Shown: positions 15,401 to 42,127 of the stretch, piece by piece
How the letters are laid out: each line of letters begins with the position of its first letter
How positions within the stretch are numbered: the stretch's first letter is position 1
Notes under the pieces: model-generated
Told to the model about the DNA's origin: nothing
Database searches by the model: none
What the model saw: only the letters and a program-made list of their open reading frames with translations
Made by a program: the position numbers and the translations under genes
Assembly: GCA_973895155.1 (NCBI GenBank)
Contig: OZ316897.1
Coordinates: forward strand, 20,922,260-20,986,259
DNA length: 64,000 nucleotides
Direction of reading: 5' to 3'
Source: Marsupella aquatica
Lineage: Eukaryota; Plantae; Marchantiophyta

Positions 15401-18400
15401 GTGCCACTGGCTCCTCAGGGACAGCCTCATGCTCCTGCTCAACCTCTGGTGCCACCTCAACAGCCTCCTCTGGGGCAGCCAATTTCTCCACAGATGCTAG
15501 TTCCTCCTCCAAAGGGAGTTCAAATTCCCTCGTTGAGGGGGCTGCTGCTGCTTCCACCGCGGGCTCCTGGGGAGCAACGTCATCCTCCACCACGGGTGCC
15601 ACTGGCAGCTCAGGGACAGCCTCATGCTCCTGCTCAACCTCTGGTGCCACCTGAACAGGATCCTCCGGGACACCCAACTTCTCCACGGCTGTTGGTTCCT
15701 CCTCTGTGGGTTCTAGTTCGGGTGATGCTACTTCAGACATGGGTGCAACCTCTTCCTCTGTTGAGGGCACACCTAGACTGGGCTCCTTCTCGGCTGCAAG
15801 GTCCTCTACTACTGGTGGCGATGCCTCCAAGTGGAGGTCAAATTCGCTGGTTGCGGTGGCAGGTACTGTTTCCATCGCGGGCTCCTTGGGAGCAACCTCA
15901 TCCTCCGCCACGGGTGCCACAAGGTCCTCTAGGACAGCCAAATCCTCCTGCTCAACCTCTGGTGCCACCTCAACTGGCTCCTCTGGAGCAGCGAACTTGT
16001 CCACGGCTGCTGGTTCCTCCTCCAAACGGAGGTCAAATTCCCTCGTTGCTGGGGCTGGTGCTGTTTCCACCACGGGCACCTTGGGACCAACCTCACCCTC
16101 CACCACGGGTGCCACTAGCTCCTCAGGGAAAGCCTCATGCTCCTGCTCAACCTGTGGTGCCACCTCAAGAGGCTCCTCTAGGGTAGCCAACTTCTCCACG
16201 GGTGTTGGTTCCTCCTCTGTGGGTTCTAGTTCGGGTGATGCTACTTCAGACATGGGTACAACCTCTTCCTCTGTTGAGGGCACACCTAGACTGGGCTGCT
16301 TCTCGGCTGCAAGGTCCTCTGCTACTGGTGGCGATGCCTCCAAGTGGAGGTCAAATTCCCTGGTTGCAGTGGCAGGTACTGTTTCCACCGCGGGCACCTT
16401 GGGAGCAACCTCATCCTCCGCCACGGGTGCCACAAGGTCCTCTAGGACAGCCAAATCCACCTCCTCAACCTCTGATGCCACCTCAACTGGCTCCTCTGGG
16501 GCAGCGAACTTCTCCACGGCTGCTGGTTCCTCCTCCAAACGGAGGTCACATTCCCTCGTTGCTCGGGCTGCTGCTGCTTCCACCACGGGCACCTTGGGAG
16601 CAACCTCATCCTCCACCACGGGTGCCATTGGCTCCTCAGGGACAGCCTCATGCTCCTGCTCAACCTCTGGTGCCACCTGAAGAGGCTCCTCTGGGGCAGC
16701 CAACTTCTCCACGGCTGCTGGTTCCTCCTCCAAACGGAGGTCAAATTCCCTCGTTGCTGGGGCTGGTGCTACTTCCACCACGGGCACCTTGGGAGCAACC
16801 TCATCCTCCACCATGGGTGCCACTGGCTCCTCAGGGACAGCCTCATGCTCCTGCTCAACCTCTGGTGCCACCTCAAGTGGCTCCTCTGGGGCAGCCAACT
16901 TCTCCACGGCTGCTGGTTCCTCCTCCGAAGGGAGGTCAAATTCCCTTGGTGCGGGGGCTGGTGCTGCTTCCACCGCGGGCTCCTTGGGAGCAACCTCAAA
17001 TTCCACCACGGGTCCAACTGGCTCCTCAGGCACAGCCTCATGCTCCTCCTCACCCTCTGGTACCACCTCAACTGGCTCCTCTAGGGCACCCACCTTCTCC
17101 ATGACTACTGGTTCTTCCTCTCTGGGTTCTAGTTTTGGTGCTGGTAGTACAGACGGAGGTGCCACCTCTTCCTCTGTTGAGGGCAGAGCTGGGCTGGGCT
17201 CCTCCTCCACTGCAAGGTCCTGAGCTGCTGGTCCCGATGCGTCCAAGGGGAGCTCAAATTCCTTGGTGGCCATGGCAGGTGCTCTTTCCAAAGCGGGGTC
17301 CTTGGGAGCAACCTCATCCTCCACCACGGGTGCCACTCGCTCCTCTGGGACAGCCTCATCCTCCTGCTCAACCTCTAGTGCCACCTCAACAGGCTCCTCC
17401 TGGGCAGCCAACTTCTCCACGGCTGTTGGTTCCTCCTCCAAAGGGAGGTCAAATTGCCTCGTTGAAGCGGCTGGTGCTGCTTCCACCGCGGGCTCCTTGG
17501 GAGCAACCTGATCCTCCACCACGGGTGCCACTGGCTCCTCAGGGACAGCCTCATGCTCCTGCTCAACCTCTGCTGCCACCTGAACAGGCTCCTCCGGGGC
17601 ACCCAACTTCTCCACGGGTGTTGGTTCCTCCTCTGTGGGTTCTAGTTCGGGTGATGCTACTTCAGACATGGGTACAACCTCTTCCTCTGTTGAGGGCACA
17701 CCTAGACTGGGCTGCTTCTTGGCTGCAAGGTCCTCTGCTACTGGTGGCGATGCCTCCAAGTGGAGGTCAAATTCCCTGGTTGGGGTGGTAGGTGCTGTTT
17801 CCACCGCGGGCTCCTTGGGAGCAACCTCATCCTCCGCCACGGGTGCCACAAGGTCCTCTAGGACAGCCAAATCCTCCTTCCCAACCTCTGGTGCCACCTC
17901 AACTGGCTCCTCTGGGGCAGCAAACTTCTCCATGGCTGCTGGTTCCTCGTCCAAACGGAGGTCAAATTGCCTCGTTGCTGGGGCTGGTGCTGCTTCCACC
18001 ACGGGCACCTTGGGAGCAACCTCATCCTCCACCACGGGTGCCACTGGCTCCTCAGGGACAGCCTCATGCTCCTGCTCAACCTCTGGTGCCACCTGAAGAG
18101 GCTCCTCTGGGGCAGCCAACTTCTCCACGGCTGCTGGTTCCTCCACCAAAGGGAGGTCAAATTCCCTCGTTGCGGGGGCTTGTGTTGCTTCCACCGCGGG
18201 CTCCTTGGGAGCAGCCTCATCCTCTACCACTGGTGCCACTGGCTCCTCAGGGACAGCCTCATGCTCCTGCTCAACCTCTGGTGCCACCTCAAGAGGCTGC
18301 TCTGGGGCAGCCAACTTCTCTGCGGCTGCTGGTTCCTCCTCCAAACGGAGGTCAAATTCCCTTGTTGCTAGGGCAGGTGTTGCTTCCATCACAGGCACCT

Positions 18401-21400
18401 TGGGAGGAACCTCATCCTCCACCACGGGTGCCACTGGCTCCTCAGGGACAGCCTCATGCTCCTGCTCAACCTCTGGTGCCACCTCAAGAGGCTCCTCCGG
18501 GGCAGCCAACTTCTCCACAACTGTTGGTTCCTCCTCTGTGGGTTCTAGTTCTGGTGATGCTACTTCAGACGTGGCTTCAACCTCTTCCTCTGTTGAGGGC
18601 AAACCTAGGCTGGGCTCCTTCTGGGCTGCAAGGTCCTCTGCTACTGGTGGCGATGCCTGCAAGGGGAAGTCAAATTCCCTCGTTGCGGTGGCAGGTGCTG
18701 TTTCCACCGCGGGCTCCTTGGGAGCAACCTCATCCTCCGCCACGGGTGCCACAAGCTCCCCTGGGACAGCCAAATGCTCTTGCTCAACCTCTGGTGCCAC
18801 CTCAAGTGGCTCCTCTGGGGCAGCCAACTTCTCCACGGCTGCTGGTTCCTCCACCAAAGGGAGGTCAAATTCCCTCGTTGCGGGGGCTTGTGCTTCTTCC
18901 ACCGCGGGCTCCTTGGGAGCAGCCTCATCCTCCACCACGGGTGCCACTGGCTCCTCAGGGACAGCCTCAGGCTCCTCCTCAACCTCTGGTGCCACCTCAA
19001 CAGGTTCCTCCGGGGCAGCCAACTTCTCCACGGCTGTTGGTTCCTCCTCTGTGGGTTTGAGTTCTTGTGATGCTACTTCGGACATGGATGCCACCTCTTG
19101 CTCTGTTGAGGGCACAGCTAGGCTGGGCTCCTCCTCCGCTGCAAGCTCCTCAGCTGCTGGTCCTGATGCCCCCAAGGGGAGGTGAAATTCCCTGGTTGCG
19201 GTGGCAAGTGTTGTTTCCACCGCGGGCTCCTTGGGAGCAACCTCATCCTCCGCCACCGGTGCCACAAGCTCCTCGGGGACAGCCACATGCTCCTGGTCAA
19301 CCTCTGGTGCCACCTCAAGTGGCTCCTGTGGGACAGCCAACTTCTCCACGGCTACTGGTTCCACCTCCAAAGGGAGCTCAAATTCCCTCGTTGCGAGGGC
19401 TGGTGCTGCTTCCAACGCGGGGTCCTTGGGAGCAACCTCATCCTCCACCACGGGTGCCACTGCCTCCTCAGGGACAGACTCATCCTCGTGCTCAACCTCT
19501 GGTGCCACCTCAACAGGGTCCTCCAGGCCAGCCAACTTCTCCACGGCTGTTGGCTCCTCCTCTGAGGGTTCGAGTTCTGGTGATGCTACTTCAGACATAG
19601 GTGCAACCTCTTCCTTTGTTGAGGGCCAACCTAGGCTGGGCTCCTTCTCGGCTGCAAGGTCCTCTGCTACTCGTGGCGATGCCTCCAAGTGGAGGTCAAA
19701 TTCCCTGGTTGCGGTGGTAGGTCCTGTTTCCACCGTGGGCTCCTTGGGAGCAACCTCATTCTCCGCCACGGGTGCCACAAGCTCCCCTTGGACAGCCGCA
19801 TGCTCCTGCTCAACCTCTGGTGCCACCTCAACTGTCTCCTTTGGGGCAGCCAACTTCTCCACGGCTGCTGGTTCCTCCTCCAAAGGGAGGTCAAATTCCC
19901 TCGTTGCGGGGGCTGGTGCTGCTTCCACCGCGGGGTCCTTGGGAGCAACCTCATCCTCCACCATGGGTGCCACTGGCTCCTCAAGGACAGCCTCATGCTC
20001 CTGCTCAACCTCTGGGGCCACCTCAACAGGGTCCTCCGGGCCAGTCAACTTCTCCACGGCTATTGGTTCCTCCTCTGAGGGTTCGAGTTCTGGTGATGCT
20101 ACTTCAGACATAGGTGCAACCTCTTCCTCTGTTGAGGGCCAACCTAGGCTGGGCTCCTTCTCGGCTGCAAGGTCCTCTGCTACTCGTGGCGATGCCTCCA
20201 AGTGGAGGTCAAATTTCCTGGTTGCGGTGGTAGGTCCTGTTTCCACCGCGGGCTCCTTGGGAGCAACCTCATCCTCCGCCACGGGTGCCACAAGCTCCCC
20301 TTGGACAGCCGCATGCTCCTGCTCAACCTCTGGTGCCACCTCAACTGGCTCCTCTGGGGCAGCCAACTTCTCCACGGCTGCTGGTTCCTCCTCCAAAGGG
20401 AGGTCAAATTCCCTCGTTGCGGGGGCTGGTGCTGCTTCCACCGTGGGGTCCTTGGGAGCAACCTCATCCTCCACCATGGGTGCCACTGGCTCCTCAGGGA
20501 CAGCCTCATGCTCCTGCTCAACCTCTGGGGCCACCTCAACAGGGTCCTCCGGGCCAGTCAACTTCTCCACGGCTGTTGGTTCCTCCTCTGAGGGTTTGAG
20601 TTCTGGTGATGCTACTTCAGACATGGGTGCAACCTCTTCCTCTATTGAGGGCACAGCTGGGCTGGGCTCCTCCTCCACTGCAAGGTCCTCAGCTGCTGGT
20701 CCCGATGCCTCCAAAGGGAGGTCAAATTCCCTGGTTGCCATGGTAGGTGCTGCTTCTACCGCTGGGTCCTTGGGAGCAACCTCATCCTCCACCACGGGTG
20801 CCATTGGCTCCTCAGGGACAGCCACATGCTCCTCCTCAACCTGTGGTGTCAACTCAAGTGGCTCCTCTGGGGAAGCCAACTTCTCCACGGCTGCTGGTTC
20901 CTCCTCCAAAGGGAGGTCAAATTCCCTCGTTGCTGGGGCTGGTGGTGCTTCCACCGCGGGCACCTTGGGAGCAACCTCATCCTCCACCACGGGTGCCACT
21001 GGCTCCTCAGGGACAGCCTCATGCTCCTGCTCAACCTCTGCTGCCACCTGAACAGGCTCCTCCGGGGCACCCAACTTCTCCACGGGTGTTGGTTCCTCCT
21101 CTGTGGGTTCTAGTTCGGGTGATGCTACTTCAGACATGGGTACAACCTCTTCCTCTATTGAGGGCACACCTAGACTGGGCTGCTTCTTGGCTGCAAGGTC
21201 CTCTACTACTGGTGGTGATGCCTCCAAGTGGAGGTCAAATTCCCTGGTTGCGGTGGCAGGTGCTGTTTCCACCGCGGGCTCCTTGGGAGCAACCTCATCC
21301 TCCGCCACGGGTGCCACAAGGTCCTCTAGGACAGCCAAATCCTCCTTCCCAACCTCTGGTGCCACCTCAACTGGCTCCTCTGGGGCAGCAAACTTCTCCA

Positions 21401-24400
21401 CGGCTGCTGGTTCCTCCTCCAAACGGAGGTCAAATTCCCTCATTGCTGGGGCTGGTGCTGCTTCCACCACGGGCACCTTGGGAGCAACCTCATCCTCCAC
21501 CACGGGTGCCACTGGCTCCTCAGGGACAGCCTCATGCTCCTGCTCAACCTGTGGTGCCACCTGAAGAGGCTCCTGTGGGGCAGCCAACTTCTCCGCGGCT
21601 GCTGGTTCCTCCTCCAAACGGAGGTCAAATTCCCTCGTTGCTAGGGCTGGTGCTGCTTCCACCACGGGCACCTTGTGAGGAACCTCATCCTCCACCACGG
21701 GTGCCACTTGCTCCTGAGGGACAGCCTCATGCTCCTGCTCAACCTCTGGTGCCACCTCAAGAGGCTCCTCCGGGGCAGCCAACTTCTCCACAACTGTTGG
21801 TTCCTCCTCTGTGGGTTCTAGTTCTGGTGATGCTACTTCAGACATGGGTGCAACCTCTTCCTCTATTGAGGGCACAACTGGGCTGGGCTCCTCCTCCGCT
21901 GCAAGGTCCTCAGCTGCTGGTCCCGATGCCTCCAAAGGGAGGTCAAATTCCCTGGTTGCCGTGGTAGGTGCTGCTTCTACCGCTGGGTCCTTGGGAGCAA
22001 CCTCATCCTCCACCACGGGTGCCACTGGCTCCTCAGGGACAGCCACATGCTCCTCCTCAACCTGTGGTGCCACCTCAAGTGGCTCCTCTGGGGAAGCCAA
22101 CTTCTCCACGGCTGCTGGTTCCTCCTCCAAAGGGAGGTCAAATTCCCTCGTTGCGGGGGCTGGTGTTGCTTCCACCGCGGGCTCCTTGGGAGCAGCCTCA
22201 TCCTCCACCATGGGTGCCACTGGCTCCTCAGGGACAGCCTCAGGCTCCTCCTCAACCCCTGGGGCCACCTCAACAGGCTCCTCCGGGGCAGCCAACTTCT
22301 CCACAGCTGTTGGTTCCTCCTCTGTGGGTTTGAGTTCTTGTGATGCTACTTCAGACGTGGGTGCCACCTCTTCCTCTGTTGAGGGCACAGCTAGGCTGGG
22401 CTCCTCCTCTGCTGCAAGGTCCTCAGCTGCTGGTCCTGATGCGTTCAAGGGGAGGTCAAATTCCCTGGTTGTGGTGGCAGGTGCTGTTTCCACCGGGGGC
22501 TCCTTGGGAGCAACCTCATCCTCCGCCACGGGTGCCACAAGCTCCTCGGGGACAGCCACATGCTCCTGGTCAACCTCTGGTGCCACCTCAAGTGGCTCCT
22601 GTGGGACAGGCAACTTCTCCACGGCTGCTGGTTCCTCCTCCAAAGGGAGGTCAAATTCCCTCGTTGCGGGGGCTGGTGCTGCTTCCACTGGGGGCTCCTT
22701 GCGAGCAACCTTATCCTCCATCACGGGTGCTACTGGCTCCTGAGGGACAGCCTCATGCTCCTGCTCAACCTCTGGTGCGACCTCAACTGGCTCCTCTGGG
22801 GCAGCCAACTGCTCCACGGCTACTGGTTCCTCCTGTGTGGGTTCTAGTTCTGGTTTTGTGAGTTCAGACGTAGGTGCCACCTCTTCCTCTGTTGAGGGCA
22901 CAGCTGGGCTGGGCTCCTCCTCCGCTGCAAGGTCCTCAGCTGCTGGTGGCGATGCCTCTAAGGGGAGGTCAAATTCCCTGGTTGCGGTGGCAGGTGCTGC
23001 TTCTACCGCGGGGTCCTTGGGAGGAACCTCATCCTCCACCACGGGTGCCACTGGCTCCTCTGGGACAGTCTCATGCTCCTGCTCAACCTTTGGTGCCACC
23101 TCAACAGGCTCCTCCGGGGTAGCGAACTTCTCCACGGTTGTTGGTTCCTGCTCCGTGGGTTCTAGTTCTGGTGATGCTACTTCAGACATGGGTGCAAACT
23201 CTTCCTCTGTTGAGGGCACACCTAGGCTGGGCTCCTTCTTGGCTGCAAGGTCCTCTGCTACTGGTGGCAATCCCTCCAAGGGGAGGTCAAATTCCCTGGT
23301 TGCGGTGGCAGGTGCTGTTTCCACCGTGGGGTCCTTGGGAGCAACGTCATCCTCCGCCACCGGTGCCACAAGCTCCTGTGGGACAGCCGCATGCTCCTGC
23401 TGAACCTTTGGTGCCACCTCAACTGGCTCCTCTAGGGCAGTGAACTTCTCCACGGGTGCTGGTTCCTCCTCCAAAGGGAGGTCAAATTCCCTCGTTGCGG
23501 GGGCTGCTGCTGCTTCCACCACGGGCTCCTTGGGAGCAACCTCATCCTCCACCAGAGGTGCCACTGGCTTCTCACGAACAGCCTCATGCTCCTGCTCAAC
23601 CTCTGGTGCCACCTCAACAGGCTCCTCCGAGGCAGCCAACTTCTCCACGGCTGTTGGTTCCTGCTCTGTGGGTTCTAGTTCTGGTGATGCTACTTCAGAC
23701 GTGGGTGCAACCTCTTCCTCTGTTGAGGGCACAGCTAGGGTGGGCTCCTTCTCGGCAGCAAGGTCCTCTGCTAGTGGTGGCGATGCCTGCAAGGGGAGGT
23801 CAAATTCCCTGGTTGCGGTGGCAGGTGCTGTTTCCATCGTGGGCTCCTTGGGAGCAACCTCATCCTCCGCCACGGGTGCCACAAGCTCCTCTGGGACAGC
23901 CACATGCTCCTGCTCAACCTCTGGTGCCACCTCAAGTGGTTCCTCTGGGGCAGCCAATTTCTCCACGGCTGCTGGTTCCTCCTCCAAAGGGAGGTCAAAT
24001 TCCCTCGTTGCGGGGGCTGGTGCTGCTTCCACCGCGGGTTCCTTGGGAGCAACCTCATCCTCCACCACGGGTGCCACTGGCTCCTCAGGGACAGCCTCAT
24101 GCTCCTGCTCAACCTCTGGTGCCACCTCAACAAGCTCCTCCGCGGCAGCCAACTTCTCCAGGGCTGTTGGTTCCTCCTCTATGGGTTCTAGTTTTGGTGT
24201 TGCTACTTCAGACGTGGGTGCCACCTCTTCCTCTGTTGAGGGCACAGCTAGGCTGGGCTCCTCCTCCGCTGCAAGGTCCTCAGCTGCTGGTCCTGATGCC
24301 TCGAAGGGGAGGTCAAATTCCCTGGTTGCCGTGGCAGGTGCTACCTCTGCAGGCTCCTTGGGAGCAACCTCATCCTCCACCACGGGTGCCACTGGCTCCT

Positions 24401-26114
24401 CTGGGACAGCCTCATGCTCCTGCTCAACTTCTGGTGCCACCTCAAGTGGGTCCTCCGGGGCAGCCAACTTCTCCACGGGTGCTGGTTCCTCCTGTGTGGG
24501 TTGTTGTTCTGGTGATGCTACTTCAGACGTAGGTGCCACCTCTTCCTCCGTGGACGGCACGGCCTGGCTGGGCTCCTCTTCCACTGCAAGGTCCTCTACT
24601 GCTGGTGGTGATGTCTGCAAGGGGAGGTGGAATGCCCTGGTTGCATTGGCCGGTGCTGCTTCCACCGTGGGGTGCTTGGGAGCAACCTCATCCTCTACCA
24701 CGGGTTTCACAGGCTCCTCTGGGAGAGCCTCATGCTCTTGCTCAACCTCTGGTGTTACCTCAAGTGGCTTGCCCGGGGTAGCGAACTTCTCCAGAACTGG
24801 TGGTTCCTGCTCTGTGGGTTCTAGTTCTGGGGCTGGTAATTCAGACATAGGTGCCACCTCTTTGTCCGTTGGGAGCTTGGCGGGGCTGGGCTCCTCCTGC
24901 CGTGGATGGTCCCGTGCTTTTGGTGCTGATGGGTCGAAGGGGAGCTGAAATTCCCTTGCTGCTCTGGCTGGTGCTTCTTCCATCACTGGATCCTTTGGAG
25001 CAACCTCATCCTTCATCACGGGTGCCACAGGCTCCTCGGGGACAGCTTCATGCTGGTGCTCAACCTCTGGTGGTACCTGAAGTTCCTCCTCTGGTGCACC
25101 CAACTTCTCTACTGCTGCTGGTTCCTCCTTTGTGGGCTGTAGTTCTGTTGGTACTATTTTAGACCCTAGGGACACCTCTTTGTCTGTTGGGAGCACAGCC
25201 GGGTTGGGCTCCTCCTCTACTTCAAGGTGGTTTGCTGCTGGTGGTGATGCGTCCAAGGGGAGCTCTGATTCCCTTGTTGCTGGGGCCGGTGCTGCTTCCA
25301 CTGCCGGTTGCTTTGGGGCAACCTCATCGTCCACTACAGGTGTCACCGGATCCTTGGGGACAGCATGGGGCTCATGCTCAACCTGTGGTGGTCCTTCAAG
25401 TGGCTCCTTTGGCACAGCCAACTTCTCCAGCGCTGATGGCTCCTCCTTTGCTGCCTCAAGTTCTGGTGTGGCAGCTTCTGACGGAGGTGCCACTTCTTCC
25501 TCTGCTGGTAGCAGAGCCTGGATGGGCTCTTCCTGCACTGCAAGGTCCAGGTCCTTTGCTGTTGGTGCAGATGCCTCCATGGGAAGTGCATATTCCCTAG
25601 TTGCTGGGGCTGCTTCCACCACCGGCTCCTTTTGAGCCACAGCAAGGTCCGATTCAGCGGGTGCTATGTCTTCTGAATTCTTGGGAGTATCCTGGTCGAT
25701 GACTGGGGCCTCTACTCTGTACACTGGCTGCTCTGGAAGAGCCCCGGGCTCATTCTGCACCGCTGGTGTTACCCCAAATGGTTTCTGAGGTGCAGTGTAG
25801 TCGGTTGCTTTCTGGGCCGTTGGTGTTGCAAGTTCTTTGAGTGTTTGTGTGTCGTTAGGCCGGGCTGGAGATGAATCGATTGGGTCTGCTATGTGGAGAG
25901 TGCCGTGTTTTCGCGAAGGTGGAGGCCTTTCCGCCTGAAGTGCTTTCGTTTTAGCTGCCTCGAATAGAGTACCAGCTTCTATCTCGTCGACAATTTGTTT
26001 GACAGATTTTTGGCGTTTGTATTCGATGTCTTGGGTCGCCGTGTTTTCTGATTCCAATGCTGTCGTCGAGTCCTTTGGAATTGCTATGTGCTGTCCCGGT
26101 TGTGCTGCAGGTGT
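486..26114 (-). CDS. Giant terminal coding exon (25,629 nt) of the repeat protein
   Basis: The stop-free 8,523-aa ORF in the track extends 19 codons upstream to the acceptor cccacag|ACA at 26114. All repeat indels preserve the frame. Confidence 0.9.
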   Translation of the reverse strand, partial: TPAAQPGQHIAIPKDSTTALESENTATQDIEYKRQKSVKQIVDEIEAGTLFEAAKTKALQAERPPPSRKHGTLHIADPIDSSPARPNDTQTLKELATPTAQKATDYTAPQKPFGVTPAVQNEPGALPEQPVYRVEAPVIDQDTPKNSEDIAPAESDLAVAQKEPVVEAAPATREYALPMEASAPTAKDLDLAVQEEPIQALLPAEEEVAPPSEAATPELEAAKEEPSALEKLAVPKEPLEGPPQVEHEPHAVPKDPVTPVVDDEVAPKQPAVEAAPAPATRESELPLDASPPAANHLEVEEEPNPAVLPTDKEVSLGSKIVPTELQPTKEEPAAVEKLGAPEEELQVPPEVEHQHEAVPEEPVAPVMKDEVAPKDPVMEEAPARAAREFQLPFDPSAPKARDHPRQEEPSPAKLPTDKEVAPMSELPAPELEPTEQEPPVLEKFATPGKPLEVTPEVEQEHEALPEEPVKPVVEDEVAPKHPTVEAAPANATRAFHLPLQTSPPAVEDLAVEEEPSQAVPSTEEEVAPTSEVASPEQQPTQEEPAPVEKLAAPEDPLEVAPEVEQEHEAVPEEPVAPVVEDEVAPKEPAEVAPATATREFDLPFEASGPAAEDLAAEEEPSLAVPSTEEEVAPTSEVATPKLEPIEEEPTALEKLAAAEELVEVAPEVEQEHEAVPEEPVAPVVEDEVAPKEPAVEAAPAPATREFDLPLEEEPAAVEKLAAPEEPLEVAPEVEQEHVAVPEELVAPVAEDEVAPKEPTMETAPATATREFDLPLQASPPLAEDLAAEKEPTLAVPSTEEEVAPTSEVASPELEPTEQEPTAVEKLAASEEPVEVAPEVEQEHEAVREKPVAPLVEDEVAPKEPVVEAAAAPATREFDLPLEEEPAPVEKFTALEEPVEVAPKVQQEHAAVPQELVAPVAEDDVAPKDPTVETAPATATREFDLPLEGLPPVAEDLAAKKEPSLGVPSTEEEFAPMSEVASPELEPTEQEPTTVEKFATPEEPVEVAPKVEQEHETVPEEPVAPVVEDEVPPKDPAVEAAPATATREFDLPLEASPPAAEDLAAEEEPSPAVPSTEEEVAPTSELTKPELEPTQEEPVAVEQLAAPEEPVEVAPEVEQEHEAVPQEPVAPVMEDKVARKEPPVEAAPAPATREFDLPLEEEPAAVEKLPVPQEPLEVAPEVDQEHVAVPEELVAPVAEDEVAPKEPPVETAPATTTREFDLPLNASGPAAEDLAAEEEPSLAVPSTEEEVAPTSEVASQELKPTEEEPTAVEKLAAPEEPVEVAPGVEEEPEAVPEEPVAPMVEDEAAPKEPAVEATPAPATREFDLPLEEEPAAVEKLASPEEPLEVAPQVEEEHVAVPEEPVAPVVEDEVAPKDPAVEAAPTTATREFDLPLEASGPAAEDLAAEEEPSPVVPSIEEEVAPMSEVASPELEPTEEEPTVVEKLAAPEEPLEVAPEVEQEHEAVPQEQVAPVVEDEVPHKVPVVEAAPALATREFDLRLEEEPAAAEKLAAPQEPLQVAPQVEQEHEAVPEEPVAPVVEDEVAPKVPVVEAAPAPAMREFDLRLEEEPAAVEKFAAPEEPVEVAPEVGKEDLAVLEDLVAPVAEDEVAPKEPAVETAPATATREFDLHLEASPPVVEDLAAKKQPSLGVPSIEEEVVPMSEVASPELEPTEEEPTPVEKLGAPEEPVQVAAEVEQEHEAVPEEPVAPVVEDEVAPKVPAVEAPPAPATREFDLPLEEEPAAVEKLASPEEPLELTPQVEEEHVAVPEEPMAPVVEDEVAPKDPAVEAAPTMATREFDLPLEASGPAAEDLAVEEEPSPAVPSIEEEVAPMSEVASPELKPSEEEPTAVEKLTGPEDPVEVAPEVEQEHEAVPEEPVAPMVEDEVAPKDPTVEAAPAPATREFDLPLEEEPAAVEKLAAPEEPVEVAPEVEQEHAAVQGELVAPVAEDEVAPKEPAVETGPTTATRKFDLHLEASPRVAEDLAAEKEPSLGWPSTEEEVAPMSEVASPELEPSEEEPIAVEKLTGPEDPVEVAPEVEQEHEAVLEEPVAPMVEDEVAPKDPAVEAAPAPATREFDLPLEEEPAAVEKLAAPKETVEVAPEVEQEHAAVQGELVAPVAENEVAPKEPTVETGPTTATREFDLHLEASPRVAEDLAAEKEPSLGWPSTKEEVAPMSEVASPELEPSEEEPTAVEKLAGLEDPVEVAPEVEHEDESVPEEAVAPVVEDEVAPKDPALEAAPALATREFELPLEVEPVAVEKLAVPQEPLEVAPEVDQEHVAVPEELVAPVAEDEVAPKEPAVETTLATATREFHLPLGASGPAAEELAAEEEPSLAVPSTEQEVASMSEVASQELKPTEEEPTAVEKLAAPEEPVEVAPEVEEEPEAVPEEPVAPVVEDEAAPKEPAVEEAQAPATREFDLPLVEEPAAVEKLAAPEEPLEVAPEVEQEHLAVPGELVAPVAEDEVAPKEPAVETAPATATREFDFPLQASPPVAEDLAAQKEPSLGLPSTEEEVEATSEVASPELEPTEEEPTVVEKLAAPEEPLEVAPEVEQEHEAVPEEPVAPVVEDEVPPKVPVMEATPALATREFDLRLEEEPAAAEKLAAPEQPLEVAPEVEQEHEAVPEEPVAPVVEDEAAPKEPAVEATQAPATREFDLPLVEEPAAVEKLAAPEEPLQVAPEVEQEHEAVPEEPVAPVVEDEVAPKVPVVEAAPAPATRQFDLRLDEEPAAMEKFAAPEEPVEVAPEVGKEDLAVLEDLVAPVAEDEVAPKEPAVETAPTTPTREFDLHLEASPPVAEDLAAKKQPSLGVPSTEEEVVPMSEVASPELEPTEEEPTPVEKLGAPEEPVQVAAEVEQEHEAVPEEPVAPVVEDQVAPKEPAVEAAPAASTRQFDLPLEEEPTAVEKLAAQEEPVEVALEVEQEDEAVPEERVAPVVEDEVAPKDPALERAPAMATKEFELPLDASGPAAQDLAVEEEPSPALPSTEEEVAPPSVLPAPKLEPREEEPVVMEKVGALEEPVEVVPEGEEEHEAVPEEPVGPVVEFEVAPKEPAVEAAPAPAPREFDLPSEEEPAAVEKLAAPEEPLEVAPEVEQEHEAVPEEPVAPMVEDEVAPKVPVVEVAPAPATREFDLRLEEEPAAVEKLAAPEEPLQVAPEVEQEHEAVPEEPMAPVVEDEVAPKVPVVEAAAARATRECDLRLEEEPAAVEKFAAPEEPVEVASEVEEVDLAVLEDLVAPVAEDEVAPKVPAVETVPATATREFDLHLEASPPVAEDLAAEKQPSLGVPSTEEEVVPMSEVASPELEPTEEEPTPVEKLATLEEPLEVAPQVEQEHEAFPEELVAPVVEGEVGPKVPVVETAPAPATREFDLRLEEEPAAVDKFAAPEEPVEVAPEVEQEDLAVLEDLVAPVAEDEVAPKEPAMETVPATATSEFDLHLEASPPVVEDLAAEKEPSLGVPSTEEEVAPMSEVASPELEPTEEEPTAVEKLGVPEDPVQVAPEVEQEHEAVPELPVAPVVEDDVAPQEPAVEAAAAPSTREFELPLEEELASVEKLAAPEEAVEVAPEVEQEHEAVPEEPVAPVVEDEVAQKVPAVEAAPAPATREFDLPLEEEPAAVEKLAAAEEPVEVALDVEQEHVAVPEEPLEVAPEVEQEHVDVPEEPVAPVVEDEVPPKNTAVEAAPATAIREFDLPLEASPPAVEKLAAPKEPLEVAPEVEQEHVAVLEEPVAPMVEDQVAPKEPAVEAARAAATRQFDLPLEEEPTAVEKLAAPEEPVEVALEVEQEDEAVPEEQVATVVEDEVAPKDPALEAAPATATKEFDLPLDASGPAAQDLAVEEEPNPALPSTEEEVAPMSVLPAPKLEPREEEPAAVEKLAAPEEPLEVAPEVEQEHDAIPEELLAPMLEKLAAPEEHEAVPEEQVSPVLEDEVAPKDPTVEAAPARATREFHLPLEASGPAAKDLAAEEEPSPAVPSTEEEMAPTSELAAPELQPTEEEPTDVEKLAAPEKPVEVAPEVEQEHVPQEPLAPVVEKLAAPQEPVEVAPEVEHEDAAVPEELVAPVAEEKVAPKEPMVETAPATATREFDLPLEASPPVAEDLAAEQEPNLVVPSKEEEVAPTPEVASPKLKPTEEELTALEKLAAPKEPLEVAPEVEQEHVAVTEELVALVAEDDVAPKEPGVETVPATTTREFDLPLEPSPPVAEDLAAQKEPSLALPSREEEVQAASEVASPELEPTEEEPTAVEKLAAPEEPVEVAREVEQEHEAVPEEPMAPVVEDQVAPKVPAVEAAPAPATREFVLPLEVEPAAVEKLAAPEEPLEVAPQVEQEHEAIPEELVAPVLEKLAAPEEPVEVAPEVEHEDAAVPEGLVAPVAEDEVAPKEPEVETTLATATREFDLPLEASPPVAEDLAAEKEPSLAMPSTEEEVAPMSEVASPELEPTEEEPTAVENLATPEEPLEVAPEVEQGHEAVPEEQVAPVVEDEVARKQPAVEEAPAPATRECDLPLEEEPAAVEKLAALEEPLEVAPEVEQEHEAIPEELVAPVLDKLAAPEEPVEVAPEVEHEDAAVPEGLVAPVAEDEVAPKEPEVETAPATATREFDLPLEASPPVAEDLAPEKEPSLAVPSTEEEVAPMSEVGSLELEPTEEEPTALEKSAAPEEPVEVAPAVEQEHEAVREEQVAPVVEDEVAPNDPAVEAAPATATREFDLPLEASGPAAEDLAAKEEPSPAVPSTQEEMAPTSELAAPEPEPTEEEPVAVENLAALEPVQVVPEVEQEHEAVPEEPVAPVVEDEVAPKEPAVEATPAPATREFELPLEEEPAAVEKLAAPEEPLEVAPEVEQEHAAVPEELVAPGGEDKVAPKEPAVETAPAPATREFDLPLEASPPVAEDLAAEKEPSLAVPSKEEDVAPTPEVASPELGPTEEEPTALEKLAAPEEPVEVATEVEQEHEAVPEEEVAPVLEDEVAPKDPAVEAASAMATREFDLPLEASGPAAEDLAAEEKPSPAVPSTQEEMAPTSELAAPELEPTEEEVVAVEKSATLEQPVEVVPEVEHEHEAVPEEPMAPVVEDEVAPKEPAVEAAPAPATREFDLPLEVEPAAVEKLAAPEEPLEVAPQVEQEHEAIPEELVAPVLEKLAAPEEPVEVAPEVEHDDAAVPEGLVAPVAEDEVAPKEPEVETALATATREFDLPLEASPPVAEDLAAEKEPSLAMPSTEEEVAPMSEVASPELEPTEEEPTAVENLATPEEPLEVAPEVEQGHEAVPEEQVAPVVEDEVARKQPAVEEAPAAGTREFDLPLEEEPAAVEKLAALEEPLEVAPKVEQEHEAIPEELVAPVLDKLAAPEEPVEVAPEVEHEDAAVPEGLVAPVAEDEVAPKEPEVETAPATATREFDLPLEASGPAAEDVAAEEKPSPAVPSTQEEMAPTSELAAPELEPTEEEVVAVEKSATLEQPVEVVPEVEHEHEAVPKEPMALVVEYEVAPKEPAVEAAPAPATREFDLPLEEEPAAVEKLAAPKEPLEVAPEVEQEHVAVSQELVALVAEDEVAPKEPGVEISPATATREFDLPLQASPPVAENLAAKKEPSLALPSTEEEVKATSEVASPELGPTEEEPTAMEKLAASEKPVEVAPEVEQEHVPQEPVAPVVEKLAAAQEPVEVAREVEYEDAAVPEELVAPVPEDEVAPKELTVETAPATATREFDLPLEASPPVAEDLAAKQEPSLVVPSKEEDVAPTPEGASPELEPTEEEPTALEKSAIPEEPVEVGAEVKQEHEAVLEDPVAPVVEDEVAPKVPAVEAAPAPATREFDLPLEEEPPAVEKLADQEEPLEVAPEVEQEHVAVPQELVALVAEDEVAPKQPGVETAPATATREFDLPLEAVGPAIEDLAAEKEPSPAVPSTEEEMAPTSELAAPDLQPTEQEPTDVEKLAALEEPVEVLPEVEHEHEAVPKEPMAPVVEDEVAPKEPAVEAAPAPATREFDLPLEEEPAAVEKLAAREEPLEVGPEVEQEHEAIPEELVAPVLEKLAAPEEPLEVAPEVEHEDAAVPEGIVAPVAEDEVAPKEPVVETTPATATREFDLHLEASPTVAEDLVAEKEPSLAVPSTEEEVAPMSEVASPKLEPTEEEPTAVEKLAAPEEPVEVAPEVEQGHEAVREEQVAPVVEDEVAPKHPAVEAAPATATREFDLPLEASGPAAEDLAGEEDPSPTVPSTEEEVAPTSELAAPELEPTQEEPVAVEKVAALEEPVEVVPVVQQEHDAVPEEPVAPVVEDQVARKEPAVEKAPAPATREFDLPLEEEPAAVEKLAAPEVPLDLAPEVEQEHEAIPEELVAPVLEKLAAPEEPVEVAPEVEHEDAAVPEGLVAPVAEDEVAPKEPAVETAPATPTREFDLPLEASPPVAEDLAAEKEPSLGVPSTKKEVAPMSEVASPELEPTEEEPTAVEKLAAPEEPVEVAPEVEQEHEAVLEEPVAFVGEDEVAPKDPAVEAAPATATREFDLPLEASGPEAEDLAAEEKPIPAVPSKEEQVAPTSELAAPELEPTEEEPVGMEKLAAPEEPVEVAPEVEQEHEAVPEEPVAPVVEDEVAPKEPAVEAALAPSTREFSLPLEEEPATMEKLAAHEEPLEVAPEVEQEHAAVPEEAVAPVVEDQVAPKDPVVEAAPATAPREFDLLLEESSPAVEDLAAEGLVAPVAEDEVAPKEPEVETAPATATREFDLPLEASPPVVEDLAAKKEPCLALPSTDEAVEATFEVASPELEPTEEEPTAVEKLAAPEEPVEVAPEVEQEHDAVSEEPMAPVVEDEFAPKEPTVEAALAPSTREFSLPLEEEPATMEKLAAHEEPLEVAPEVEQEHAAVPEEAVAPVVEDQVAPKDPVVEAAPATAPREFDLPLEASGPAAEDLAAEEEPSPAVPSSEEEVAPTSEVAAPELEPTEEEPVGMEKLAAPEEPVEVAPQVEQEHHAVPEEPVAPVVDVEVAPKEPAVEAAPATTTREFDLLLEASSPAVVDLAAEGLVAPVAEDEVAPKEPAVETAPATPTREFDLPLEASPPVVEDLAAKKEPCLALPSTEEEVEATFEVASPELEPTEEEPTAVEKLAAPEEPVEVAQEVEQEHDAVSEEPMAPVVEDEFAPKGPTVEAALAPSTREFSLPLEEEPAAMEKLAAHEEPLEVAPEVEQEHAAVPEEAVAPVVEDQVAPKDPAVEAAPATAPREFDLPLEASGPAAEDLAAEEEPSLAVLSSEEEVAPTSEVAARELEPTEEEPTAVEKLAAPEEPVEVAPEVEQEHVAVPEEPVAPVVEDEVAPEEPAVEGVPATATREFDLPLEASPPVVEDLAAKKEPCLALPSTEEEVEATFEVASPELEPTEEEPTAVEKLAAPEEPVEVAQEVEQEHDAVSEEPMAPVVEDEFAPKGPTVEAALAPSTREFSFPLEEEPAAMEKLAAHEEPLEVAPEVEQEHAAVPEEAVAPVVEDQVAPKDPAVEAAPATAPREFDLPLEASGPAAEDLAAEEEPSLAVLSSEEEVAPTSEVAARELEPTEEEPTAVEKLAAPEEPVEVAPEVEQEHEAVPEEPVAPMVEDEVAPEEPAVEGVPATATREFDLPLEASSPAVKDLAAEEEPFPAVPSREEEVAPTSEVAAPELEPTEEEPVAVEKLAAPEEPVEVGPEVEPEHEAVLEEPVAPFVEDVVTPKDPVVETAAATATREFYVPLQALPPAAEDLAVKEEPSAAVPSTVQEVAPTSEVAAPELVPTDKEPAAVEKLATPEEPVEVAPEVQQEHEAVPEEPLAPLVEDEVAPKEPAVEAAPATTTREFDLLLEASSPAVEDRAAEDEPSPAVPSREEEVGPPSEEAASELEPKEEEPPPLEKLAAPEETLEVAPDVEQDHEAVQEELVAPVVEDEVAPKEPAVEAAPATATRVFELPLEALPPAIEDLAAEKEPSPAVPSTEEGVAPTSEGAAPELEPTKEEPAAVEELAAPKEPVEVAPEVEQEHEAVPEEPVAPVVEDEVAFKEPAVEAAPAPATREFDLPLVEEPAAVEKLAAPEERLEVPLEVERKLEAVPEERVAPVVEDEVAPKEPAVEAAPATAPREFELPLEASPPAVEDLAAEEEPSPAVPSTEEGVGPTSEGAAPELEPTKEEPAAVEELAAPEELLEVPLEVEQELKAVPEEPVAPPMEDEVAPKEPTVEAAPAISTREFDLPLEALPPAAEELAAEEEPSPAVPSTEEEVTPTSVGAAPELEPTKEEPAVEPAAVEKLAAPVDPLEGEPEIEQEQKDILEEPVAPLMEDEAAPKEPVVEDEVPPKEPAVEAAPATAPREFELPLEALAPAAEDLASMEIGGGGEELGGEQRVVGAFGSPEAQGVEKGGLAKEEGDQTGEPFFKGHGLQDQELRVSNRVMLGETRPVHVSSNDRACEKVETEPLFKGLGLSENIDICMCASCLYRRFLIKEHGVKFLNFDGSKEDGNAKGIKGEGSMPPDVETKKEVDFPSDGEVEKCPSHPFSEIGTVKKVLEGRVSVELTDEQSSVIKLVQGLDSSFKSQGTNSSDGNDSILGESQQATSDEPSRLEAGLPSIVTNANLTTVY

Positions 26115-29100
26115 CTGTGGGGTGCACAGTACAGGAGTTAATCAACAGGGTGATGCAATTGAATGGGATTAATATTTCCGTAACTAGGATAACTAGACGG
26201 CGAGTTGTAGGAACCAAACGGACATTCGCTTGGTTTTGATTTGTTTTTCAGCTTCGTATGCCCAATTGTGTCTCGTGAGACCACCTTGTTCATGGTAGGA
26301 CCTTGCAATTCAAGTAAAAGAGAAAGAACGAGCAGCCGTATCGTGAGAAGGTTTCCTACCTAATCAGAGAAGGTTTCATATTTTCAGCTAGGCTTTTTTT
26401 AAATGTTTATAGATCATTTTTTTACCCGCTGCGTTGCTGCTTTGTCAACCAAGTTACAGCTATACTAATCTGTTTCCAATAACTTGACCTACAGACCAGA
26501 AATTTCAATCAATTTGGACAGAGACATGGAACAATGTCGATCCAGTTAGGTTCTTCAATTCATCAAAAGGTAAAGACACAAGTTCAGTGCTCAAGAGTAC
26601 TTGTGGTAGGGGTTAAGACTCTTATTGCTTAGCAATTGGCCGCAAGTTGCAATCAACGAAAACTACAGGAGGCAGGAAGATCTGCGATTGTCGGATCATG
26701 CACGAGGCACGAGAGAAACAGTCTTGCGTATACATTCGTGATAGCAACAGATCGAACGAGAATCCTGTCGTTCAATCATCACCTGGTGACGAACGGTGCT
26801 GTACTACTGGATTCAGTTATTTCAAAAAGTTAACAAGCACTCAACCAAGGGCAATGCTCAGTTAAGTTTCACGCTAATTATTTCTGCAGTTTTCTGAATT
26901 CAAGTTTCACCATCCTATGCATTACCGCTACTTTCTGCACAACTTGAGATAATATTTTATTAGCTTTGTACGAGTTTTCAAGGAATTCGATTACGTGTTT
27001 CTCATATTTTATATCATTTCCATCTCCGTTACGGCTCTAATTTTCAACTAGTAAGATGTATTGGAAGAGCTGGGTTAATATCATGTGAAGCGGCTTTTGG
27101 GAAGCTTTCACCTGACGTTTTTTCTTTGTTGAGATGAATGCTGAAGCTAAATACCTCATAGACTTCTTTGGTCGTGGTGGGCGTAAATTGCGGACGACCC
27201 TCCTCGTCAACTGCTGCTTGAATTTCACCGGCAGAGTCGACAATCTCAGGTTGGCTGGTTTCACTGATCTGTGGAGATGGTGATCTGGGCGTCGTTCTCT
27301 CATCTTCGGGGCCCCTGATGATTTCAAAATCACCACTGCCTGTAGAATCCGATCTTGAGCTGATAGAAGCTGGTTTGGCGACCTTGAGCTCCGTAGCCAG
27401 AGGTTCTTCTCGTGCAGTGTATCCCTCTCTCTGATACGAAACGAACGAAAGAATGATTGGTTAGAACAGTTAGAAGCCTATAAGCATGCTTACATGATTT
27501 TCATCAAAATTCATTTCATTTCCGTTTCGAAGGTCAGATTAACGTAAAGCTGGGGCTTCGAAGGCGAATGTCACGTACTTGGAAACCTTGTAGTAAAACA
27601 AGAGCTAAAATCTTAATTTACTAAATCAAAAATCGAGAAATGAAATCCAGAGTTCAAATACGTTACGAGCCAGAAGAATCATGCTGCCCTAAATTTCAAT
27701 CCTTAAGATCGTATGAGATCGCAAAAGTGTGCAGTTGAGAATATCTTGACAAGCAAGACGCCCGGTCCTCACTTCACATCTTCGACTTCCAATGACTCGA
27801 CCAGCCATTCCTGAAAAAGAAGCATGAATGAGACATGACTTGGGATCTGAATTCTGGTCTTACTCGCAGAAGGGTTGCTGGGCTCAAGGACCCGGAAGTC
27901 GCTTCTGATTCATCGGAAATTTCATGACCTAAAGTTCCTTCCTTCTTGTCGACTGGAAGTACTCGCTTCAGAGTTCCAATTTCTCTGTTCGCCGCATCAG
28001 TTGGAGAAATTCTGGATGCCGAATTATCCAACGCCACCTTCTTCTCAGCTTCTGTATCCAGTACCTTCAACTCTTGTTGAGCTGTGAAGGACTCCGATTT
28101 ACCTTTCTTCGAGGCTGCCTGGAGCGCGGATCGAGGGCTACGAGTGACCAGTTCCCAATTCTCACCTAGCTCAACAAAAGCTTTCATAGTCTCATGTTCC
28201 TTTGCTTCCAGGTCCTTCTTTGAGTCCACTTTACTAAGGTCTGCTTGTCGCAATGCCACTGGGGTATCTGGAATAACAACAGCAGCCGAAGACGGTGACA
28301 CATTGAACGGCTCGACGGGGACTGCTTCCTTGCCGACCTTTTGGCTGAAAGACGGTCGAAGAGTTGGGATTGGAGAATCTTTGGCGCTTCTGCTACGAGG
28401 CAGCATAGACGAGCTGCTCAATCTTAATCTGGAACGAGCTTGAAAGCTCGATTGTTCGCGTTCAGATCCAAATGCAGGCGGAGATGTGCCCGAGCTCGAA
28501 TCCTTGGATGGACTAAAGACGGGCGATTCATATCTAGACGACACCGGTGACTTTGTAGCAGGAGTGGCAGGCACAGAAGAGGGTCCAAGTTCCTCTGAAG
28601 CATCGTGAAACGTTTCAGCTCCTTCATCGTGTAGTTGAGAGGATGCAGGCGCTGTTTCGGTTGATGATTTCGAGCCCAGCCCTGTTCCCTTCAAATTTCT
28701 TTTCCTTAACAGACCAGACGATTCTGAAGAGGACTCTCCCGAGTGGAACGCTCCTTCCTGTTCGAAGACACCAACGTCTTCCAGCTACAATGCAGAATAC
28801 ACAAGACCGAACGACGAACGACAAAGATTAGAAGATGGTCATAATTTAATTTATGAACACATTACATGCATATTCTAGACAGACCGTATGTTTGACCTTT
28901 CAACATCGATCAGTTTAGGCATGCTCTTTCCTGTCTCTCTCTGAAGCTCAATGTGGTGGAACTGACGGTACGAAGGAACATTCCAAACATAAATTTCTGC
29001 CCATTGGAATTTTTGTGTTCAAGATGGAACAAGATAACATTTCATAGATCCATCACAAGCTGAATTACTGGAAGCAAGTGACGATTCTAAGGGATCCGAA

Positions 29101-29805
29101 CTGTAGAGATTTAGACTGCCACTTCGATACAAATTCCAAGAAATTCCTCAATTCTGGGATTCCTTTCATTTTACATACAGACGGTGTGGTAAAGCTCCAA
29201 CAACTTAGTTGTAGAGAAGTTTGATTCTCAGATAATCTTCTTCCAGACTACGCATTTGAATAATTATTAGCCTTTGGATGCATGCGCAAGACACGTGCGT
29301 GTCAAATCATCACAAATAGTTCTAACGTACAAAGCAAGAACTTCGGGACAGTACATAGCTGTTGACAGCTTCGACTTTTTGATTGATTTGGTTGATTTGA
29401 CTAGCGCTTTAGTTTCTGGTATCCATTGATGATTAATGGCCATGGTACTTGCATTCTGGAAGAGAACTAAGTCGGAGTGGCCCGACAACTCTTTCGTTCT
29501 ATTTCGTTGAGATCTGAAGGTGCAGAGCCTTCAGTTGTTGATTCACAGTGCTCGTCAACTAAACTTCACCAATTATACAGAGTTCATTTACTGATGGGAA
29601 GTGACCGATGAGGAATTAAAACTTCTGAAGGAAATTGCTTGATTAGAGATACATCAAACTGATCGCCTACCTTGTCTTTGGATGGCTGAGTAGACGGCGT
29701 GGGATCCCTGACTGAAGAAGATCTTGGTGTCGACGGCTTACTACCTCGAACGTGGAAAGAGGAGTCCGTGTCGGTCCGCTCGAGTTTGCTCGAGCATTTC
29801 CCCAT
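486..29805 (-). CDS. Giant (~8,986 aa) acidic Glu/Pro/Ala/Val-rich repeat protein with N-terminal MGxCxSK acylation motif; 4 coding exons
   Basis: Exons 29805-29671 (45 aa), 28784-27864 (307 aa), 27430-27155 (92 aa) and 26114-486 (8,542 aa + TAG). Junctions AAG|gtaggc..ttgtag|CTG, CGA|gtaaga..tatcag|AGA and GAG|gtattt..ccacag|ACA are all phase 0 and give one continuous reading frame. Confidence 0.8.
1250..25620 (-). repeat. Coding tandem array of 195-nt (65 aa) and 318-nt (106 aa) units with an occasional extra 96-nt (32 aa) module; core motif TREFDLPLE
   Basis: Motif spacing of 195 nt (16743 vs 16938). Higher-order offsets of 513 (=195+318), 831 (=195+2x318), 2364 and 3468 nt were checked directly in the sequence. 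Confidence 0.97.
27155..27430 (-). CDS. Exon 3 of giant protein (REGYTAREEPL...TTKEVYE)
   Basis: Pyrimidine tract + tatcag acceptor, open 92-codon frame, GAG|gtattt donor. Confidence 0.75.
27864..28784 (-). CDS. Exon 2 of giant protein (Ser/Pro-rich disordered head)
   Basis: Overlaps most of the 306-aa track ORF in the same frame; ttgtag acceptor and CGA|gtaaga donor; 921 nt. Confidence 0.8.
29671..29805 (-). CDS. First coding exon of giant protein, MGKCSSK...
   Basis: ATG at 29805, MG-x-C-x-S-K motif, AAG|gtaggc donor at 29670. Confidence 0.75.
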
Positions 29806-29876
29806 CTTGGGAGGATGATTTTTGAGTACTAGATGATATTAAATGCAGTAACAAAGAGATCACGAACCCAAATTCT

Positions 29877-30283
29877 CTGCACAGGTAAAATATTAGAGTT
29901 CGCCGGGTAAAAAATTGTCGGACTCTGTCAAACAATCAATAAATCAAAGAAGTCAGCTGAAGGATATTTTCGAACTTAGATCTGCATTACAGTAAAAAAT
30001 AATCTTGCAATAAATACACCACACCCGCCGACTAGATAATGAAAATGCTTGATTATCCGAAAGCAATTCACCAAGGAGGAACGACAAGTCACCTACCGTA
30101 GCTCCAAATTGTAGAACACAGACAGATTTTTGTAGGAAAATACTTACAAAATTGCCCAATTAAGATCGCCTTCATCCAATAACTGATAAAAGTCAGGATC
30201 CTAACTACTGCGTTAAGGGAAATGACTTCGAGAAGACGAGCGTACACAATCCAAAGCCAAAAGGCGAATGAACGGCAGCGTAC
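29877..30283 (-). other. Possible 5'-UTR intron of the giant gene
   Basis: CAG|gtacgc donor at 30283 and ttttacctgtgcag| acceptor at 29877; no transcript evidence. Confidence 0.4.
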
Positions 30284-30564: not shown

Positions 30565-30711
30565 CGAAAGCTTCCACTTAGTACAGATCTGACATACACA
30601 AGTAACTCGGAACTGCTTGACCACTAAAAATGCAAGCGAAAGCTTCAACTTAGTACAGATCTGACATACACAAGTAACTTGGAACTGCTTGACCACTAAA
30701 AATGCAAGCGA
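30565..30711. repeat. Tandem duplication, 2 x 72 bp
   Basis: cgaaagctt(c/a)..agtacagatctgacatacacaagtaact..aaaaatgcaagc repeated at 30565 and 30637 with ~2 mismatches. Confidence 0.95.
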
Positions 30712-37038: not shown

Positions 37039-37348
37039 GAGGGTCCACTCGACTTTTCAATCTCTCATCTGTGTCATTCGATTCGGTATTGTGCTTTGGT
37101 CCCTCCCTCTGATCACAAATTTGGTAAAATAAGTAAGAAATTTGAACGAAATGTTATATGTGGGTACGAAATGATTTTGAAGATCTCATCCTCCAAATGT
37201 TTTGGCTTTATACTATTGTAAACGGTTTGGTCAGCCACTCTTTACGTCCTAGCCAGGTTTCACGAAATTTTCTACTTAGTTTGTCCTCCACAAATTTGGA
37301 CAATAGCCAGACTGCTTGTTCTTTGAATGTGGGGAGACGTGAGTAGTA

Positions 37349-37573
37349 AGAAAGTTCTGTAAAAACATAGATTTCTTGTAAGAATAGTTACACTCTAGAG
37401 CCAGAAAGTTATGTAAAAACACAGATTTATTGTAAGAATATAGTAAGTTACACTCTAGAGCCAGAAAGGTATGGAAAAAAATAGATTTATTGTAAGAATA
37501 GTTACTCTCTAGAGCCAAAAAGTAATGTAAGAACATAGATTTCTTGTAAGTTAGAATAGTTACACTCTAGAGC
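37349..37573. repeat. Minisatellite, ~4 x 54-58 bp
   Basis: Unit agaaagtt(c/a)tgtaaaaacatagattt(c/a)ttgtaagaatagttacactctagagcc. Confidence 0.95.
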
Positions 37574-37795
37574 CGTCACTCTAGACCATAGCTTGTGCCT
37601 AGCTTCTCTTCTCCAATATATTATTAGTTTAAAGAAAAGGAATTACAATTTTGATCTCAAATGTTAATCGCAGAAGGCCGGACCCTGTTTGTTAGTTCAT
37701 CAAATACTTACTGTAGGAATTATGTGAGACAACCCCTCCACTCCCTGTGACCCAGTGAAGAGACCTTCGCAGACTGACGACAACACTACTATCGA

Positions 37796-42001: not shown

Positions 42002-42127
42002 ATCTACAAGTTTTCATATGCTAGATACTAACTTCCTCTGTAATTTCTCCTTACTATGGTAATTGATTGTAAGTAGTGGAATTCAGTTGACGGAAGTTAG
42101 ACAGTACGCCTGCCAACAATTCGAACT

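Follow-up and report, generated by a model that had tools for sequence, protein, structure and literature searches.

The giant frame and its four-exon model

The window (the whole stretch of Marsupella aquatica DNA analysed here, 64,000 nucleotides) carries one giant open frame. It is listed on the minus strand at 26057-486, from a TTG that the earlier note had reported as its start and that we confirm at 26057. No other giant frame is present in the window. The frame already opens at 26115, at an AG acceptor that lies 19 codons ahead of the TTG, and its first 178 codons contain no ATG. Either an upstream exon must supply the start, then, or translation begins within the repeats.

The predicted model consists of four open frames and three GT-AG introns, all of them in phase 0. 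Together they encode 8,986 amino acids (953 kDa, pI 4.05; Table 1). The GC content is 50-55% in the exons and 39-40% in the introns. The stretch is contained in four assembled runs (X1-X4) from two studies. None of these runs is on record as RNA, so the splice junctions of the four-exon model are predicted ones. No contig of the four runs joins exons.

Table 1. Features of the gene for the giant chain (positions in the window)
Feature	Positions	Strand	Description
Codons 1-7, MGKCSSK	29785..29805	-	Predicted N-myristoylation site (Gly2, Ser6, Lys7); candidate S-acylation Cys4
Coding exon 1	29671..29805	-	45 aa, rich in S/T, weakly basic; phase-0 donor at its end (AAG, then GTAGGC)
Intron 1, predicted	28785..29670	-	886 nt, GT-AG, phase 0; frameshifting indels in organism B
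Coding exon 2	27864..28784	-	307 aa, rich in Ser, looks disordered; 3' end uncertain; absent from the second copy
Intron 2, predicted	27431..27863	-	433 nt, GT-AG, phase 0
Coding exon 3	27155..27430	-	92 aa; open frame, acceptor rank 3/295, frame score +18.8
Intron 3, predicted	26115..27154	-	1,040 nt, GT-AG, phase 0; three frameshifting indels in organism B
Coding exon 4	486..26114	-	8,542 codons and stop; helical element, repeats, unique C-terminus
Two-helix element, candidate binding motif	25929..26066	-	Exon 4 residues 17-62, AlphaFold2 single-sequence model
C-terminal cysteine cluster	750..998	-	Cys 8817, 8838, 8840, 8843, 8899; CxCxxC

At the start of the model, the minus strand reads ATG GGG AAA TGC TCG AGC AAA (29805-29785). 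It encodes MGKCSSK, as previously claimed for this site. The start had been placed 3.7 kb upstream of the giant frame, and the distance measured from ATG 29805 to TTG 26057 is 3,748 bases. The extent given to exon 1 (45 amino acids) is also exact. The spliced MGKCSSK start holds, with predicted junctions and with comparative support from organism B.

ATG 29805 sits in the context ccaagATGG; position -3 is A and position +4 is G. There is a stop in frame 12 codons upstream, and the next ATG in frame is codon 172, in a poor context. ATG 29805 is likely the initiator, and Gly2 would directly follow the initiator Met. The GC of exon 1 is 0.548, compared with about 0.40 for the introns. Its donor ranks first among 206 GT sites, by a score taken from a hand-weighted consensus. 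An alternative donor near 29741-29744 was rejected (score of 4.0-4.5, against 7.0 for the chosen one).

The codon-position score, trained on both ends of exon 4, identifies the correct frame of exons 2 and 3. For exon 1, it is flat over the three frames (-5.6/-4.4/-4.5), yet above its flanks. The exon 2 frame scores +39.5, against -145 and -83 in the other frames. By a crude hand-weighted score, the acceptors of exons 2, 3, and 4 come 9th, 3rd, and 28th among 295, and the donors that close exons 2 and 3 come 18th and 19th among the 206 GT sites. Exon 2 also has earlier phase-0 donors at 28337, 28064, and 28037, each of which keeps the frame.

The strongest acceptor of the region lies within intron 2, at 27811 on the minus strand. 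It leads into 11 codons that end at a GT (27778-27811), a possible mini-exon. The intron upstream of it would measure 53 bases, and one organism B haplotype lacks the 3' end of the mini-exon, owing to a deletion of 92 nt. Upstream of the gene, there is a 72-base direct duplication (30565-30711). The minus-strand stretch 29910-29985 is retained in a second gene copy between diverged flanks. It lies 30 bases below a TATA-like sequence, has an acceptor-like site at 29982, and may be the core promoter or the start of a 5' UTR exon.

Elsewhere in the window, open frames at 61069-61689 and 50947-51405 (minus strand), the second of them hydrophobic, look like exons of one or two neighbouring genes. 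They have no Pfam, Atlas, or homologue match (one neighbour exon was compared with proteins of 325-2,000 aa). The 17 and 148 neighbouring ORFs searched against Pfam gave sub-threshold matches only, and Rfam gave no match. A local duplication of 75-83% identity comprises 32004-35213 and 39675-43172, plus 36686-37039 and 43335-43692. Both copies have a small Pro-rich frame on the minus strand that starts with MPCCL, near 32565 in one and near 40210 in the other, and a QQRNPRPKSICPGQAFEMVL stretch is common to the two. These frames have no Pfam match. A 54-base array of four copies occupies 37349-37574. The GC-rich island at 56983-58079 shows overlapping plus-strand frames and short tandem repeats, with no Pfam match.

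Comparison with organism B and the second gene copy

Run X1 equals the stretch without any difference. It may be the source of the window and hence is not independent. Runs X3 and X4 represent organism B, a close relative, with two haplotypes assigned by depth. We considered 12 indel events in organism B (12 of 32, less one at 27167 from the second copy, plus one deletion from the joint table). Among them, all nine non-triplet indels fall outside the four exons, which make up 35.8% of the stretch (P=0.019). The sole exonic indel among the events considered measures 6 nt. The substitutions available for organism B are 40 of 304. Gap-free contigs of this organism extend over 27787-28398 and 28456-28812 for exon 2, and another one covers exon 3.

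Codons 1-29 are identical to the window in both haplotypes. A 92-base contig (29719-29810) carries the summed depth of both, and it shows no difference. The 50 bases directly upstream of this contig differ at five places. The first 21 bases would stay unchanged by chance in 34-71% of cases at 5-1.6% divergence, which is weak for the seven codons alone. Conservation, proposed earlier as a check, stands for the beginning of exon 1 in organism B. However, no distant homologue was found that shows it, and the second copy is without the motif.

All four runs contain this diverged copy, which is about 88-90% identical and absent from the window. Its contigs match window 29661-29802 and 26998-27458. 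They cover exons 1 and 3 together with parts of intron 1, and they leave no room for exon 2. The two phase-0 ends would permit this layout of exon 1 followed by exon 3. The ATG of the copy has the same upstream context, one base closer. Four inserted bases at 29762-29764 restore its frame, and the first 14 codons read differently. It starts with MKN... in X3. In X1, it starts with MGN..., provided that its three terminal bases are matches, to which the number of differences points.

The exon 3 of the copy has a net change of -82 bases in X1, counting one further gap in 27291-27349. A G>A at 27412 likely makes its codon 7 a TGA, unless a neighbouring change alters it. Frame preservation in this exon was dropped as support for these two reasons. 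The second copy looks decayed. Its lack of the MGKCSSK frame counts mildly against the conservation of the motif.

We also estimated how often chance alone could produce such a start. In its six frames, the window has a single occurrence of the pattern MG-x-C-x-S/T-K/R, and 0.03 occurrences are expected per 38 kb (100 shuffles). We then shuffled the 5 kb that precede the giant exon 2,000 times and read the strand of that exon. A start with Gly2, Cys at 3-5, and Ser/Thr6 appears in 3.2% of these shuffles. None of the 2,000 has this start open to a strong phase-0 donor, with patterns that were selected after the site was seen and a donor score that is a hand-weighted consensus. A plain MGxxx(S/T) start open to such a donor appears in 3 of 2,000 (5 kb upstream). 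Between 26001 and 64000, the loose dual-acylation pattern is observed 4 times, against 0.77 expected from base shuffles. The MGxxxS/T pattern is observed 15 times, against 7.6. The shuffle chances for MGKCSSK are optimistic because the patterns are post hoc and the shuffles under-count real starts two- to five-fold. A coincidental start plus donor seems unlikely.

The acidic repeat chain and similar proteins

About 8,100 amino acids of exon 4 are arranged in repeat units of 106 and 65 residues, rich in E, A, P, and V. The 89 repeat anchors define 88 intervals: 43 of 106 residues and 30 of 65. Exon 4 consists of Glu (23%), Ala (17%), Pro (15%), and Val (13%) for the most part. At the DNA level, identity between units is 86-88%; the longest perfect repeat measures 408 bases, and there is no frameshift. 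The dN/dS among the repeats is 0.80-0.90. The giant frame has no stops, against about 45 expected if the 1,544 substitutions were neutral, an upper estimate since the units share ancestry. Selection seems to hold the frame open more than the exact sequence, as expected of a spacer.

The net charge of the repeat region is -0.225 per residue over 8,100 aa. By polymer scaling, the coil radius would be about 29-45 nm and the contour about 3.3 micrometres. The earlier note had stated that there is no signal peptide or membrane helix, and this holds on Kyte-Doolittle hydropathy, the one measure used. The best 19-residue window is 1.30 in the whole chain and -0.78 in the first 60 residues. The best 8-residue value in these 60 is 0.51, with no signal peptide by hydropathy. 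The C-terminus is hydrophilic, with no GPI-type hydrophobic tail, and the chain has no SPPP motif. These features of extensins and AGPs are absent, and the claim that it is not a cell-wall glycoprotein is probably right.

The two-helix element has a pLDDT of 90-94 over residues 31-50 of exon 4. It is the only confident structure seen. The rest of the first 200 residues of exon 4 is modelled as coil (AlphaFold2, single sequence). The AlphaFold2 model of the last 299 residues is uninformative (pLDDT 37.7), with no confident fold. There are 11 Cys in 8,986 residues, and six are at the ends: Cys4 and five at 8817-8899. The C-terminal cluster is a candidate second anchor or metal site. The chain had been described as anchored by one end. 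This description overlooks the cluster as a possible second attachment.

The searches of the large protein set covered proteins of up to 4,697 aa, with N-terminal parts of the chain as queries. Exon 1 gave two matches among 1.84 billion representatives; both are internal low-complexity repeats and were rejected. Exon 2 matched none of 7,987 candidates among longer proteins, and residues 1-130 of exon 4 none of 1,631 among shorter ones. The metagenome contigs gave none by DNA pattern and none of 514 candidates by exon 3. There was no match in the PDB sequences, C-terminal stretch included. Each of these blanks is weak evidence. At E<=1, Pfam has no family for exons 1-3 or for either 500-aa end of exon 4. 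The repeat stretch of exon 4 (500 aa) had one unrelated, sub-threshold match. No report of such a protein was found in the literature searched, and its absence is not thereby proven.

Some known proteins have a similar design. GAP43, MARCKS, and BASP1 have N-terminal acylation (Gly2 myristate or Cys3/4 palmitate), a pI near 4, and an unstructured chain at the inner leaflet (PMC6478813). However, their size is 23-32 kDa, compared with 953 kDa here, and their basic effector domain binds PIP2, calmodulin, and actin (PMC6478813). The present chain is acidic and disordered like them, its two modelled stretches are mostly coil, and its acylation is predicted. No sequence match with them was found. 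DREPP/PCaP1 is far smaller than the 953-kDa chain, and the DREPP Pfam profile has no match in exons 1-3 or in three 500-aa stretches of exon 4. It is a hydrophilic plant protein with a Gly2 myristate anchor, but it uses a polybasic cluster as second signal (PMC8457133), and the present chain has no such cluster near its N-terminus. The chain may work like MARCKS/BASP1 or DREPP, at about 30-40 times the size of MARCKS/BASP1. We claim membership of neither family.

RBB1 from Arabidopsis (At5g40450) is also very large, has no conserved domains, and is cytosolic. It may bind membranes, and it is poorly conserved beyond close relatives (PMC4411111). It has 2,890 aa, and the word "myristoyl" does not occur in the text of that paper. 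Its family has a common C-terminal region of 75 aa (PMC4411111), compared here by description only. CBL1 and SOS3/CBL4 present Gly2, a nearby Cys, Ser6, and Lys7. Nevertheless, their Cys is at position 3 instead of 4, and they are folded EF-hand proteins with no repeat chain (PMC8494787).

Predicted lipidation of the N-terminus and its alternatives

MGKCSSK has the MGxxx(S/T) pattern, small polar residues, and Lys7, in agreement with the N-myristoyltransferase (NMT) consensus invoked before. Lys3 is not known to be tolerated by NMT except alongside Ser6 and Lys7, and no confirmation of this rule was found in PMC2940729. Most NMT substrates have the MGxxx(S/T) consensus (PMC8494787). In the human enzyme, Lys7 makes the sole specific contact at that position, a salt bridge. 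The Lys3 substrates Arf6 and hippocalcins carry the Gly2 myristate (PMC7048800).

S-acylation has no consensus (PMC8494787, PMC3927097). Its best-supported predictive position is Cys3 beside Gly2, not Cys4 (PMC8494787). The cysteine had been called adjacent to the myristoylation site. It is near Gly2, but at position 4, one residue apart. Cys4 is within the first few residues after Gly2, as in dually acylated proteins. The net charge is 0 over residues 1-15, and residues 2-30 have 6 K/R and 3 D/E. With a neutral stretch 1-15, Cys4 is the only evident second membrane signal. Its S-acylation is plausible, not predictable. In a plant h-type thioredoxin, myristate alone leads to the ER/Golgi, and myristate with S-acylation leads to the plasma membrane (PMC3927097). 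S-acylation can also alter the destination of SOS3 (PMC8494787).

We consider it probable, with moderate confidence, that MGKCSSK is the true N-terminus of the 8,986-residue polyanion. The protein would be dually acylated and form a brush or spacer on the cytosolic face. The four predicted exons would be spliced into one acidic protein. The initiator Met would be removed, and Gly2 would be myristoylated during translation. S-acylation of Cys4 would supply the second signal for stable binding, the N-terminus being weakly basic. The protein would then be transported to the plasma membrane, on its cytosolic face. One end of the disordered chain would be held at the membrane, and the rest would be a polyanionic spacer or brush. 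This brush might fill the cell cortex and buffer cations. Any specific binding would fall to the Ser-rich head and the short helical element.

Exon 1 could instead be myristoylated but stand at the head of a gene that ends with exon 3, with or without exon 2, which we find rather unlikely. The giant frame would be a separate unit or minor isoform from an internal ATG, soluble and similar to RBB1. The four-exon junctions are predicted ones, the exon 4 acceptor is the one ranked 28, and the exon 3 frame reads on into intron 3, where it meets a stop after 35 codons. The second copy, with its matches to exons 1 and 3, has no exon 4 match at 85% within the 1,365 bases downstream on its contig. However, the exon 4 frame opens at an AG acceptor, and its 178 codons without ATG include the only confident helices. 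The junctions are all in phase 0, and the composition grades smoothly from exon 3 into exon 4.

We also hold it unlikely that Gly2 is myristoylated and Cys4 is not acylated. The single lipid would bind weakly, and most of the protein would be soluble. The lack of an S-acylation consensus agrees with this, as does the lack of a basic second signal over residues 1-15. The huge anionic chain would also repel anionic lipids. Conversely, a Cys two residues from a myristoylated Gly is the usual layout of dual acylation, as with Cys3/4 of GAP43 (PMC6478813), and Cys is rare in the chain (11 of 8,986).

A further reading, quite doubtful, extends the anchor to a near-megadalton, lineage-specific tether. 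The N-terminal lipid would hold one end and the C-terminal CxCxxC attachment the other, with the repeats as an entropic spring or spacer similar to titin PEVK. The roughly 8,100 acidic residues, up to about 3 micrometres in contour, could link the plasma membrane to another membrane or to the cytoskeleton. The length would be set by the repeat number and kept in frame by selection while the sequence drifts.

It is very unlikely that MGKCSSK is internal. A 26-codon segment (ATG 30175, donor 30096, phase 1) would join an acceptor at 29829 and bury Gly2. Myristoylation would be lost, perhaps with a weak targeting peptide instead. The phases match, the join is open through MGKCSSK, the donor reaches 6 of 7, and the upstream peptide has an 8-residue window with a hydropathy of 2.0. 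However, segment 30175-30097 has an intron-like GC of 35%, and one organism B haplotype has a 2-base deletion at 30125, within it. Four other acceptors were tested, and each join meets a stop before MGKCSSK. The alignment of the second copy stops at 29985, with nothing aligned upstream. More likely, the segment is untranslated.

Export of the chain with the same dual acylation, without a signal peptide and onto the outside of the plasma membrane or into the wall, is highly improbable. Ala/Ser/Thr-Pro dipeptides are typical of wall glycoproteins, and 578 of these pairs were counted in the chain. Leishmania HASPB, likened here by description and not by sequence, has an acylation signal at the N-terminus, hydrophilic repeats, and no signal peptide (PMC3491706). 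It needs N-terminal acylation for surface exposure (PMC3491706, PMC2946902). However, HASPB is parasite-specific and exported to the outer surface (PMC3491706). Here, a 953-kDa chain must cross the bilayer and would miss ER/Golgi glycosylation. It has 7 N-sequons besides the absence of SPPP, and 23% Glu. The plant analogues DREPP/PCaP1 and RBB1 face the cytosol (PMC8457133, PMC4411111). The cytosolic location given in the earlier note is likely, with no signal peptide. Nevertheless, it is not forced: HASPB is acylated yet exported, and S-acylation changes the destination of SOS3.

The reading as a dually acylated polyanion on the cytosolic face changes the gene model, as ORF callers miss the anchor and 463 residues. 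MGKCSSK alone is a textbook signal and probably real. What is unusual is how large a chain it would anchor. The 45-residue N-terminus offers cheap experimental access to a protein that is intractable otherwise. How the 25.6-kb frame is read depends on this tag: the frame would encode a lipid-anchored intracellular polyanion, not a secreted wall glycoprotein.
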